From NCBI GenBank assembly GCA_963758495.1, contig CAVWVI010000003.1:448001-512000 (forward strand): DNA of 64,000 bases, written 5' to 3'. The notes beneath the pieces are model-generated. The model searched no databases. It worked only from the letters and a program-made list of their open reading frames with translations, and was not told the origin of the DNA. The first letter of the stretch is position 1; each line of letters starts with the position of its first letter. Below, one piece after another: positions 28,328 through 40,088 of this stretch. Both the position numbers and the translations under genes were made by a program. This DNA is from Oligoflexia bacterium (GTDB taxonomy: Bacteria > Bdellovibrionota > UBA1018).

Positions 28328-29593
28328 ATGAAAACACAACACATCGCATTCGGACTCACCGGTGCTCTTCTTTTTTCCAGTGCCAGTTGGGCAGTTGGAC
28401 TAGAAAAACCCGTCATGTGGTCAGGAAAATACTCTGGCCTCGGCAATGCAGCAGCCTCTAGCGCCAAAGGAGCAGAAGCACTCTACTTCAATCCAGCAGG
28501 CTTAGCCACGGCTGGACGAACCACTGAAAACGACGCTACCCTTGATTTTTCTCCCACCTTTACAAAAATGACTACCCCAGTCATTGCTCCAAATACCGCC
28601 ACCAATTCCAATACGACTTTTTCACCTGTAGGGGCATTGCTGCTATCTCACCAACTCATGCCAGGCCTAGGTGTGGGTCTGGGGATCTATGCTTCGGGGG
28701 GTTTAGCCTTAGATTATGGGAGTGTCACTTTAAATCCTCTTTTACAGACAACCCTACCCGCCGAGCTTCGAGTTGCTTTAAGCGGAATGGAATTTGCTTT
28801 AGGAGCTGGTTATCAAGTCACTCCCATGCTGAGCATTGGCGCAGCTTGGCGTATCTCACTCTATAGTGCCGACTTAGCAACACTGGGTGCAGACCCCACT
28901 GACCCCAATTCGATAGCAAATAACAAATTTTTGAGTCAAACAGGAACCAATTACTCTGGCTTTAGATTTGGAGCACAATACGGCAGCGAAGATGGAAACT
29001 GGGGGATAGGCGCGCAATTTCGAACCAGTGTGGCTTTAAACGCATCTGGCACCGGAACCTCCTATAGTCTCTATGGCGCAAACCAATCCGCCACTGCTCT
29101 GGGCGCCACTCAACTGCAGACTACCCTCCCTCTTCAATTCTCTCTGGGAGGTCACTACACTCTCATGAATGATTTAAAAGCGTTCTTACAATATGACTAC
29201 ACACAATACGTAGATAATCGGACTTTAAACATTACTGTCGGCGGAATTGTTACATCTCAAACTTTAGACTGGAACAATCGACATAACGCGCGTGTTGGTT
29301 TTGAATACACAAGAATACAAAACTGGCCTATCCGCCTTGGATATGTCTTTACCTCACAAGTGACTCCTAACGATTATCCCGCCATTATTTACACCGGCCC
29401 AGGACCTGCGAACACCATTACATTAGGTACTGGCACTCTACTCGCCTCTAACCTCAGCCTCGATGGCGCACTTGACTACACCTGGGGCAACGGAACAGGT
29501 ACTCCTGTAGCGGCAACAGCAGCCGGCCCTTATGCTGGAGCTTATAATGCAGTTGCCTATACCGCTCACACGGGCTTGAATTACCGATTTTAA
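28328..29593 (+). CDS. FadL/OmpP1 family outer-membrane hydrophobic-compound transporter
   Basis: Signal peptide, hatch motif LYFNPAGL, beta-barrel pattern, C-terminal YRF; GGAGG RBS. Confidence 0.88.
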   Translation: MKTQHIAFGLTGALLFSSASWAVGLEKPVMWSGKYSGLGNAAASSAKGAEALYFNPAGLATAGRTTENDATLDFSPTFTKMTTPVIAPNTATNSNTTFSPVGALLLSHQLMPGLGVGLGIYASGGLALDYGSVTLNPLLQTTLPAELRVALSGMEFALGAGYQVTPMLSIGAAWRISLYSADLATLGADPTDPNSIANNKFLSQTGTNYSGFRFGAQYGSEDGNWGIGAQFRTSVALNASGTGTSYSLYGANQSATALGATQLQTTLPLQFSLGGHYTLMNDLKAFLQYDYTQYVDNRTLNITVGGIVTSQTLDWNNRHNARVGFEYTRIQNWPIRLGYVFTSQVTPNDYPAIIYTGPGPANTITLGTGTLLASNLSLDGALDYTWGNGTGTPVAATAAGPYAGAYNAVAYTAHTGLNYRF

Positions 29594-30252
29594 AAACTCG
29601 GCTGGCGGTAACAAAGCTTGAAGGAAGACCCTTCAACCACCAAAACTGCCGAATAGTCTGAATCAGGTAATAAACTCAGAAGAGTCCAACTCGACGAACA
29701 TCGATTGGACTCTTCTAATAATTGAATCACCCTCACACCTGTCGCTTTACAGTAGGCTTCCTGCATGGACCAAAAATTAAAAAACGCCTTTCTCTGAATG
29801 GCACATGGCATTAACTGTATTAAAGTCCTTTCCTTCTGAAATATTCTATGTAACAGCACTCTCGAAAAATCAAAATCCTCAGAAATAGGCTCTATATCAA
29901 TCCCCACTCGCCTTCCCCTTGAAAAAGCATAAAGGGCCATTTCGTTTGACTGTGATAAATTAAAATAAATTGAATTTTCAGCACCCTTTAACATGGGCTT
30001 TCCAGATGAGTTATAGGAAAACTCCAAAAGACGAGCGTCTATGCCTGTATACTCACTCAGAAGTTCTCTTAACACCCCTCGGGAGAGGATAAACCTCTCC
30101 TGATCTTCATCAAATAATAACTCCTTCGCTCGACCTTTTTCATCCGAACTCAAGAGACTCCAAAACTGACTCAGGCGTTTTTTATATTGCTCAAAGGAAA
30201 TATGCCAAAGATGAACTTCATCAAAAAACAAAGAAGAGTCCTTAAAAATCAC
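29590..30252 (-). CDS. Sfp-type 4'-phosphopantetheinyl transferase (divergent)
   Basis: RFILSRGVLRELLS, GKP, FNLSQS, VGIDIE, WSMQEAYCKATG. Confidence 0.88.
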   Translation of the reverse strand: MIFKDSSLFFDEVHLWHISFEQYKKRLSQFWSLLSSDEKGRAKELLFDEDQERFILSRGVLRELLSEYTGIDARLLEFSYNSSGKPMLKGAENSIYFNLSQSNEMALYAFSRGRRVGIDIEPISEDFDFSRVLLHRIFQKERTLIQLMPCAIQRKAFFNFWSMQEAYCKATGVRVIQLLEESNRCSSSWTLLSLLPDSDYSAVLVVEGSSFKLCYRQPSF

Positions 30253-30253
30253 G

Positions 30254-38403: not shown

Positions 38404-38676
38404 TTAAGTATTCCGGCTCAATACATCATGAATATATTCACACAAAGAGCTAATAGTGAGTAACTGAGGATCATCGCACCTACTAATCCAATCATTTAAA
38501 AGAAGAGGTCGATTAAATTCATCTTCCAGTGCAAGAGAGAGCGACACCATTCTCAGCGAATTAAAGCCGAGCTTTGCTACAAAAGAATCTGCATCATTAA
38601 GTTCCACCTTTTTTCCCAAGGCAGCTAAGACCGCTTTTTTTACTTTTAAATTAATTTTATCATTCGTTAGTTCCAT
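38404..38676 (-). CDS. Acyl carrier protein
   Basis: 90 aa, LGFNSLRMVSLSLALEDEF (Ppant Ser); clustered with FAAL and PPTase. Confidence 0.88.
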   Translation of the reverse strand: MELTNDKINLKVKKAVLAALGKKVELNDADSFVAKLGFNSLRMVSLSLALEDEFNRPLLLNDWISRCDDPQLLTISSLCEYIHDVLSRNT

Positions 38677-38744
38677 GCTATTTCTGCCTTCCCACCCTGT
38701 TTACACAGGAAAAATTAATCATCTTTAATTATAAAATAATGAAT

Positions 38745-40088
38745 TTAATTACTTACCTTAGACAATCGATCCTTAATTAATCTCATTTTTACACCACCGG
38801 CTGGCGCTATTGTCACTGTACGTCTCACCGGGACAACAGGTTTATTTTCTAATAATTCAAGAGAATATCGCTTCAAAATCGTCGCTATTACTATTTTCAT
38901 TTCAGTCAATCCGAAAGCCATGCCAATACAGCGACGTACGCCGCCTCCGAAAGGTAGATACTCATGAGGGGTAAATCTCCGTTCCAAGAATCGTTCTGGC
39001 TTAAAAGAACCAGGATCTGGGTACAAATCTTCTCTATGATGAGTTAAATAAATACATGGAGTGATCTGCATTCCTGCATCAATAGTAAATTCTAATATTT
39101 TTACAGGAACTTGTACTCTTCGAGAGACCACAGGAATAACAGGATAAATCCTTAGAGTTTCCTTAACCACTGCATCGAGGTAGCTTAACTGATGAAGTGA
39201 ATCCAGCTTTTCATCTGTTCCATAGAAATCCAACTCTGAAATCAAGGTCTCTTGAACTCCTGGCGTACAATGAATCCAATAAAAAGCCCAAGTCAAAGCG
39301 GTAGCGGTAGTTTCATGCCCCGCTAAAAGAAGCGTGACAATCTCATCTCTCAACTCAATATCAGAGAATTTCCCAACATCAGAATGAGACGCAAGAAGTA
39401 GACTGAGAATATCTTCATTTTTTAGAGTGGCGTTCCCTCTCCGCTCTGTGATCTCGGCAAAGATCAGTACGTCTAATTGCGATGATCTCGTACGAAACTT
39501 TTCCCAAGCATGCCAAAGCCCTGAATCACTTTTATCAGGGACACTCACTAAAGTACTAAAGCTTGCAGAATCCAAAAGAGGGACTAAAAGCGTTTTCATA
39601 TCCGAAATGCGTGTACATTCTTCACCAAACACTGATTGTAAAATAATTTCTAATGAAATATCCAACATCAGAGAATGCACATTAAAAGTTTGATTCAACT
39701 CATAAAAGGACAAAGCGCTCTCCACTACCTTCTTCATTAGCTTTCCATAGGCCCTCATGCGATCACCATGAAAAGCTGGACTCATAATCTTTCGATGCTG
39801 CATATGGGGACAGGCATCCAACAATAAAAGAGAACACTCTCCCAAAAAGGGGCGTAAAATCGCATTTCCCTCGCCCGCATAAAAAACCTCGGGATCTCCC
39901 TTAAATACTTGTTGAATTGCATCAGGATGACTAAAAAATATATGTTTACCCAAGCCCTTGAACTCTAATGTAAATGCATCTCCATACCGCTTCTTACACT
40001 CCTGCATAAATGCAAAAGGGCGAGAAAACCATTGAAAGGTTTGTTCTTCAGGAGGAATTTCTGGGCCTGATGGCAAAAAAACTTCCAT
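38745..40088 (-). CDS. Cytochrome P450
   Basis: AGHETTA, ETLR, PERF, FGGGVRRCIG heme-thiolate motif. Confidence 0.96.
   Translation of the reverse strand: MEVFLPSGPEIPPEEQTFQWFSRPFAFMQECKKRYGDAFTLEFKGLGKHIFFSHPDAIQQVFKGDPEVFYAGEGNAILRPFLGECSLLLLDACPHMQHRKIMSPAFHGDRMRAYGKLMKKVVESALSFYELNQTFNVHSLMLDISLEIILQSVFGEECTRISDMKTLLVPLLDSASFSTLVSVPDKSDSGLWHAWEKFRTRSSQLDVLIFAEITERRGNATLKNEDILSLLLASHSDVGKFSDIELRDEIVTLLLAGHETTATALTWAFYWIHCTPGVQETLISELDFYGTDEKLDSLHQLSYLDAVVKETLRIYPVIPVVSRRVQVPVKILEFTIDAGMQITPCIYLTHHREDLYPDPGSFKPERFLERRFTPHEYLPFGGGVRRCIGMAFGLTEMKIVIATILKRYSLELLENKPVVPVRRTVTIAPAGGVKMRLIKDRLSKVSN

Follow-up and report, generated by a model that had tools for sequence, protein, structure and literature searches.

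The locus considered here raises the question of whether a single bacterial operon could encode both the synthesis of a fatty-acid signal and the kinases that perceive it. The window, i.e., the whole stretch of 64,000 nucleotides that was analysed, comes from an Oligoflexia bacterium of the Bdellovibrionota (contig CAVWVI010000003.1, positions 448,001 to 512,000) and carries on its minus strand an operon of eight co-oriented open reading frames (ORFs), from position 40088 to position 29590. We incline, with modest confidence, to the view that this operon is a fatty-acid signal synthesis plus self-sensing module of a novel family. The evidence comes from the conservation of the enzyme set in other bacteria, from the enrichment of sensors next to it, from the fusion of one enzyme to such a sensor and from the receptor-like fold predicted for the sensor of the window.

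According to Pfam and NCBIfam scans, the operon successively encodes a cytochrome P450 (447 residues, 38745-40088), an acyl carrier protein (ACP; 90 residues with Ser40, 38404-38676), an enoyl-CoA hydratase or crotonase (617 residues, 36549-38402), a FabG-like short-chain dehydrogenase/reductase (SDR; 251 residues, 35797-36552), a fatty acyl-AMP ligase (FAAL; 612 residues, 33969-35807), a six-helix membrane sensor kinase with the order TM-PAS-HisKA-HATPase (TM, transmembrane; 575 residues, 32248-33975), a cytoplasmic hybrid kinase with the order REC-PAS-HisKA-HATPase-REC (REC, receiver; 665 residues, 30254-32251) and an Sfp-type phosphopantetheinyl transferase (PPTase; 220 residues, 29590-30252). 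From the P450 to the PPTase, the junctions measure +68, +1, -4, -11, -7, -4 and +1 nucleotides (nt). These ORF coordinates bear out what a preliminary description of this DNA had stated about the eight genes, their order, their common orientation and their tight junctions, including the 68-nt gap between P450 and ACP. The domain scans likewise placed two histidine kinases between FAAL and PPTase and detected no ketosynthase, nonribosomal peptide synthetase (NRPS) or thioesterase domain among the 16 window proteins scanned, both as described; the domain labels also held, apart from a BioI-like P450 and an RpfF-like crotonase, which had to be corrected. The catalytic motifs of the P450 (AGHETT and heme-Cys), ACP, SDR and FAAL and the His boxes of both kinases are intact. 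The FAAL is the sole FAAL-like gene found in the genome and the PPTase the sole match of its kind, and the GC content of the operon genes is 33-41%, against 42% for the genome. Promoter and terminator scans remained at chance level (32 vs 34.5 and 9 vs 10.0, respectively).

The enzymes belong to a gene family that is widespread and apparently undescribed. Its core, composed of ACP, crotonase, FAAL and an oxidase, recurs among 125 public loci, many of them from myxobacteria and Binatia; 45 come from genomes and 80 from metagenomes (the best 80 of 84 metagenome loci), many lie on short contigs and their genes were called by our own script. The ACP, a dedicated carrier of a cassette-specific family, is present in 117/125 loci and lies immediately 5' of the crotonase in 105 of the 111 related loci with upstream sequence, an association beyond chance. 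A FAAL is found in 77/125 loci, an SDR in 32/125 and a PPTase in 2/125, its position in L025 and L045 being that of the window operon. The oxidase slot is exchangeable: it is occupied by a P450 in 66/125 loci, by a ferritin-like diiron protein in 21/125 and by one B12 radical-SAM family in 5/125, two of these three types never occur together (0/125), and none of them was seen in 33, mostly incomplete loci. Other radical-SAM families adjoin P450 cassettes in Binatia. Crotonase, FAAL and P450 correlate with each other in their pairwise identities (rho 0.65-0.71); the SDR, an optional accessory, does not correlate with them (rho at most 0.12). Full-length matches to the cassette occur in 4/401 genomes of the host phylum and 17/401 of the myxobacterial phylum, and none in 60 close relatives of the host or in host-family genomes (0/36 and 0/57 in two scans). 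This patchy spread and the absence from close relatives point to a lateral gain; we found no flanking direct repeats that would mark an insertion and no cassette crotonase on plasmids, where the best P450 match stands in an unrelated context. Among the scanned neighbour families present in at least three loci, there is no thioesterase or ketosynthase, apart from an OleB-like hydrolase (3 loci); Ole-type head-to-head condensation was set aside since a thiolase is missing and the ligase is FAAL-type.

The P450 of the window is 46% identical to a Nostoc P450 and closest to cyanobacterial P450s, and its top PDB matches are CYP4B1, CYP97, CYP3A, CYP51 and CYP120. BioI is not in the best 60 of 193 matches, so that the analogy with BioI drawn in the preliminary description is not supported; this P450 may be CYP110-like. 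Members of CYP110 bind long-chain fatty acids (PMC1079853). The FAAL matches the NCBIfam fatty acyl-AMP ligase family with an E of 2.7e-113, under its cut-off, and its PDB matches at E 1e-25 are all FAAL-type or related adenylation domains (18/18).

Several cassettes vary this scheme. In L016 (6253-9510), P450 and FAAL form one protein of 1085 residues, adjoining ACP and crotonase. Ferritin-like diiron proteins resembling AurF and DesA2 take the place of an absent P450 (L047:13288-14172, L051:8648-9577, L123:8736-9698), and one clade of diiron cassettes also has a membrane desaturase. A small, secreted-looking protein of about 175 residues with three invariant Cys accompanies 26/125 loci (e.g., L018:7730-8263). 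From its weak matches to Dirigent and pyocyanin-demethylase, it may be a beta-barrel that could bind or convert the product; no copy was found in the genome of the window.

The marker enzyme of the family is the crotonase. Its relatives (102, among the best 120 of 437 matches listed) form a family separate from FadJ, with scores of at least 192 bits vs at most 112. The model of the window protein (predicted local distance difference test, pLDDT, 93.7) aligns over its whole length with the FadJ/FadB alpha chain (Z 33.4, root-mean-square deviation (rmsd) 4.7, 583 residues), and its top NCBIfam matches are FadJ and FadB, under their cut-offs. The hydratase glutamates E112 and E134 are invariant in 91/91 family sequences, so that the enzyme could hydrate as well as dehydrate. 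N61, C109 and Y138 are invariant in the same sequences, the corresponding residues in three outgroups of the FadJ type being A/V, G and L/I, respectively; C109 presumably sits where hydratases have the oxyanion-hole glycine. In the degenerate 3-hydroxyacyl dehydrogenase half, the column of the catalytic His holds L, V, I, A or E in the 91 family sequences and H in 3/3 outgroups, and the Asp of the G-A-D-I loop is lost. With its rebuilt hydratase site and these losses, the enzyme is neither RpfF nor a working FadJ: membership among active FadJ proteins was rejected on the missing His and the absence of a detectable Pfam 3HCDH domain, and membership in the RpfF family on its 617 residues and whole-length FadJ alignment, RpfF being a single crotonase domain of about 290 residues. 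No chain named RpfF or DfsA appears in the best 60 of its 126 PDB matches, and the RpfF-like label of the preliminary description thus gives way to a two-part, FadJ-alpha-like protein. Because it is the only release candidate found in every cassette, we regard the crotonase as a putative ACP-acting dehydratase that may also release the chain, by analogy with RpfF, which dehydrates 3-hydroxyacyl-ACP and hydrolyses it to the free acid (PMC6361424, PMC13660987). We found no acylated cysteine of RpfF described in the passages of PMC6361424 consulted, and none is assumed here.

Signalling genes accumulate next to the core. When each 60%-identity group is represented by a single locus (47 groups out of 90 long-crotonase loci), they make up 38/131 of the genes at rank 1-2 from the core, 8/59 at rank 3 and 13/192 at rank 4 or more. 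Among the 28 groups for which both flanks were seen (L016, whose flank is a cut SDR, was dropped), 14 have a membrane sensor, and homologous enzyme sets thus do not generally lack the kinases, as the preliminary description had allowed they might. The sensors are of five types, scattered across the tree: the 6-TM kinase of the window, a second 6-TM kinase, a methyl-accepting chemotaxis protein (MCP), a chemosensory cluster and a 7TM kinase. The second 6-TM sensor is accompanied by a cassette in 8/11 genomes, most of them in the training set. In L127 (14287-16734) and relatives, it has the order TM-HK-REC-HK (HK, histidine kinase), a one-chain mirror of the two-kinase relay of the window. In the radical-SAM variant, a full chemosensory cluster (CheW, CheR, MCP, CheA, CheB) directly follows the FAAL (L033:10400-17779, L083:14415-21372).

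Sequence comparison also reveals a fusion of the FAAL to the 6-TM kinase, which likewise appears undescribed. It occurs in the clade of the window, whole in L025, L045, L061 and P0122 and truncated by the end of the contig in L028, L065 and L233; four of these seven carriers come from one genus. A relative of the hybrid kinase comes after the fused kinase in L025, L045 and L061, and in the fused clade a receiver-adenylate/guanylate cyclase gene, possibly a signalling output, stands after the PPTase (L025:17780-18907). Bradymonadia cassettes have FAAL and kinase as separate genes, the same kinase type immediately following the FAAL. In the window, the reading frames of the two genes are offset by one base and share 7 nt next to a T6G4 run (33969-33990), at a point where fused relatives are continuous. 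Among 111 conserved orthologues, five breaks look like frameshifts, four of them within 3 kb (G000:C3:1484949-1488030; C4:619118). They indicate patchy indel errors in the assembly and, together with the rarity of 7-nt overlaps (5/473 gene pairs) and of T6G4 (29 in the genome), speak for an assembly error at the junction, which we judge rather unlikely. On the other side, the sister of the window's kinase, P0129, is a stand-alone protein of 580 residues that starts in the same register (support 0.98), and this sister and the separate genes of Bradymonadia argue for a real split, in our judgement the probable case. A recoded junction seems improbable; for programmed frameshifting there is only a weak downstream fold (-8.3 kcal/mol, calculated without a shuffle control).

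What the sensor might bind is suggested by its predicted structure. The N-terminal 195 residues are MASE6-like, with 13.9 bits to Pfam PF20966 (MASE6) vs a cut-off of 27.4; 8/9 relatives scanned match this family, one over the cut-off. The domain also weakly matches MASE11, clusters by its features with MASE11, MASE6 and MASE7, and its family has mostly kinase outputs (40 of 150 scanned). The model shows six long helices (pLDDT 93.6) and, among the 609 chains of a Foldseek-seeded list, comes closest to the membrane domain of the adenylyl cyclase Rv1625c (Z 15.7, rmsd 2.4, 168 residues), followed by human adenylyl cyclase 9 (AC9; Z 11.5-12.3) and then by a match of Z 7.0. Rv1625c requires its membrane domain in order to respond to mono-unsaturated fatty acids of C18 length (PMC12505454), and CqsS and LqsS combine a 6-TM design with lipophilic autoinducers (PMC4821796). 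Together, this fold and this design make a lipid ligand, be it product or precursor, plausible for the modelled domain. Within the phylum of the host, all of the five top-scoring sensor matches (at least 195 bits; next 67) lie at cassettes, four of them being part of the training alignment and only that of G217 independent. Searches of the PDB with the sequences of three sensor domains returned no match (A4), two chance matches (A5) and, among the matches listed, kinase cores only (A6); the 6-TM domain has no sequence match to a CqsS or LuxN model, and homology of the two 6-TM sensor types was not detected (hhalign probabilities of 0.9% and 0.4%, from shallow alignments). No relevant paper on MASE6 was found in the literature search, and MASE9-12 have been called uncharacterised (bioRxiv 10.1101/2021.11.05.467447).

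The cassette resembles several known systems. It shares with the diffusible signal factor (DSF) and BDSF systems (RpfF, RpfC/RpfR, RpfB) a crotonase fold with two glutamates, the lack of a separate thioesterase and a nearby sensor. However, RpfF is a single domain fed by the fatty-acid synthesis cycle, with dehydratase and thioesterase activities that give a cis-2-enoic acid, whereas here a FadJ derivative of 617 residues with Asn61, Cys109 and Tyr138 would be served by an oxidase and its own FAAL-loaded ACP; moreover, the operon encodes no HD-GYP, GGDEF, EAL or Hpt domain and hence no receptor of the RpfC/RpfG or RpfR type. In the cqs and lqs systems, the sensor gene adjoins that of the synthase, CqsA or LqsA, which is a pyridoxal phosphate (PLP) enzyme. 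None of the eight operon genes encodes a PLP-dependent synthase domain, and the likeness lies in the 6-TM short-loop histidine kinase, which in those systems serves a lipophilic ligand (PMC4821796); sequence homology to CqsS was not found, the 6-TM character being given by the helices and the Rv1625c fold. The architecture is therefore indeed unlike rpfBFCG or cqsAS, as first described, and the logic of the cassette is like that of DSF or CAI-1 signalling without membership in either family. Among class III adenylyl cyclases, Rv1625c (Cya), reported as a fatty-acid receptor (PMC12505454), and AC9 share the predicted membrane-domain fold, but the identity to Rv1625c is 10% and the output here is PAS-HisKA-HATPase. 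As to FadJ/FadB alpha, the whole-length fold and both glutamates are kept, but the cassette crotonase is about 100 residues shorter, has lost the dehydrogenase His and Asp and lies beside ACP and FAAL, not thiolase. FAAL-ACP tailoring is exemplified by the alkyne, cylindrocyclophane and nocuolin pathways. In stand-alone clusters of this kind, a FAAL loads a dedicated ACP and an oxidase modifies the acyl chain (PMC12820801); the present ones differ in lacking a polyketide synthase, NRPS or thioesterase and in having the crotonase marker and a co-encoded or fused membrane sensor. The words "kinase", "enoyl" and "P450" are absent from the main text of that survey, and its supplementary tables may list these clusters. 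A literature search for FAALs with signalling partners gave no description of the cassette or the fusion among the matches listed, most subscription journals being outside its coverage.

From these comparisons we infer a product, a release step and a ligand. The PPTase would prime the ACP, onto which the FAAL would load a free fatty acid of medium or long chain length; the P450 would hydroxylate the chain, the SDR would adjust its oxidation state, and the FadJ-derived crotonase would dehydrate it and free the product, in the manner of RpfF, whose single active site does both. The resulting oxidised or unsaturated fatty acid would be the diffusible signal, entering the membrane and binding the 6-TM domain, and PAS and HisKA would relay the response to the hybrid kinase, at its first receiver, and from there to regulators whose genes lie outside the operon. 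Oxidase exchange between lineages would, we propose, alter the signal chemistry. The synthesis-plus-sensing scheme of the preliminary description is thus retained in its outline, without its FadL, BioI and RpfF parts.

A number of observations weigh against this scheme. Membrane sensors at cassettes are not obligatory: 6 of the 28 groups have cytoplasmic regulators only, and in 8 the two nearest genes on either side include no signalling gene; the Fisher p-values of the enrichment are overstated since kin are not independent. With 2,297 representatives, the family of the 6-TM domain is a large one; it occurs without the cassette in 12/401 genomes of the phylum and reaches 6 copies in one cassette-bearing genome; the three weakest matches to the second 6-TM sensor (3/11 genomes) have no cassette nearby. 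A fold shared with Rv1625c at such low identity does not define the ligand, and the case for release by the crotonase comes down to the analogy with RpfF. The operon encodes, by domain scan, neither a P450 redox partner nor a DNA-binding regulator. A simple phosphorelay is called into question by an Asp to Asn change in the G1 box of the window's kinase clade, the His of the window's own kinase being intact, and by the same change in the second receiver of the hybrid kinase, whose first receiver keeps its Asp. Some working kinases carry Asn at G1.

Part of this evidence fits a tailored lipid that serves in structure, as a surfactant or in defence, with sensors that read a precursor fatty acid, or some other cue, and control the cassette accordingly; the FAAL-kinase fusion would then link precursor sensing to loading. 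The eight lineages without nearby signalling genes agree with such a role, as does a Binatia clade flanked instead by glycosyltransferase, fatty-acid hydroxylase and radical-SAM genes, and the receptor with the matching fold answers to ordinary unsaturated fatty acids (PMC12505454). Outside that clade, however, no acyltransferase or lipid-assembly gene recurs in the neighbour families of at least three loci, the operon of the window encodes no DNA-binding regulator, and several sensor types have been recruited; we consider a tailored lipid a less likely alternative. The operon could also serve for eavesdropping or quenching, by capturing and disarming toxic fatty acids or fatty-acid signals of foreign origin; the sensor would then detect the incoming lipid, the FAAL would trap it by loading it on the ACP, and it would be converted there by the oxidase, the SDR and the crotonase. 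A crotonase of beta-oxidation descent with both catalytic glutamates, for which hydration is possible, a FAAL accepting free fatty acids, and the FadL genes adjoining the cassette in the window and, of a different kind, in L062/L063 suit this idea, which is nevertheless improbable: the dehydrogenase half lacks its catalytic His, no thiolase or acyl-CoA dehydrogenase recurs nearby, and the FadL of the window does not travel with the cassette. Catabolism is normally CoA-based, unlike a system with a dedicated ACP and its own PPTase. Least probable of all, the kinases would be passengers of a transferred island, unrelated to the enzymes' product, as the abundance of signalling genes (88 matches to the hybrid kinase in the host genome) and the patchy occurrence of the cassette in both phyla might suggest; against it stand a FAAL fused to the kinase in three or more lineages, a kinase of the same type right after the FAAL in the Bradymonadia clade and signalling genes enriched five-fold beside the core.

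The surroundings of the operon add little to it. A FadL/TodX-type outer-membrane channel (28328-29593, plus strand) does converge on the operon, overlapping the 3' end of the PPTase by 4 nt, but its earlier assignment to the system did not hold. It has a GC content of 48.5%, against 33-41% in the operon genes, and is the genome's only match of its kind. Its orthologues occur in 27/60 genomes of the family, in which the cassette was not found, and in the 11 checked no gene of the cassette lies closer than 1.5 kb; we therefore judge it a resident neighbour outside the cassette and reject it as a dedicated signal importer, an incidental role being possible. The FadL adjoining the cassette in L062 is barely similar to it. 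Directly upstream of the P450 lies a co-oriented ORF of 129 residues (40203-40592) with a lipoprotein-like start, without a family match and with no counterpart found in related loci. Beyond the FadL gene, two near-identical 27-nt palindromes (27239-27335) lie 5' of a 214-residue ORF without a family match (27352-27996), after which comes part of a nucleotidyltransferase substrate-binding gene (28010-28306); this looks like an operator pair ahead of a decayed module.

Were the product to prove a tailored lipid, this would still leave an enzyme family and a fusion of FAAL to kinase that have apparently not been described before. Since cultured strains of Pyxidicoccus, Myxococcus and Lujinxingia carry the cassette, product and ligand are directly testable. 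More tentatively, we suggest that the cassette may add to RpfF and CqsA a third enzymatic means of making fatty-acid signals between cells, built from a FAAL/ACP cassette and a repurposed beta-oxidation enzyme, in which swappable oxidases would create signal dialects across myxobacteria, Bdellovibrionota and Binatia and the fused clade would couple synthesis and perception at the membrane. If the self-sensing module is real, it would provide an example of a beta-oxidation enzyme converted, with a new active site, to an ACP-acting biosynthetic enzyme, a candidate origin of the ligand sensed by an orphan 6-TM family predicted to fold like the membrane domains of adenylyl cyclases, and a new class of signals for predatory and social soil bacteria.

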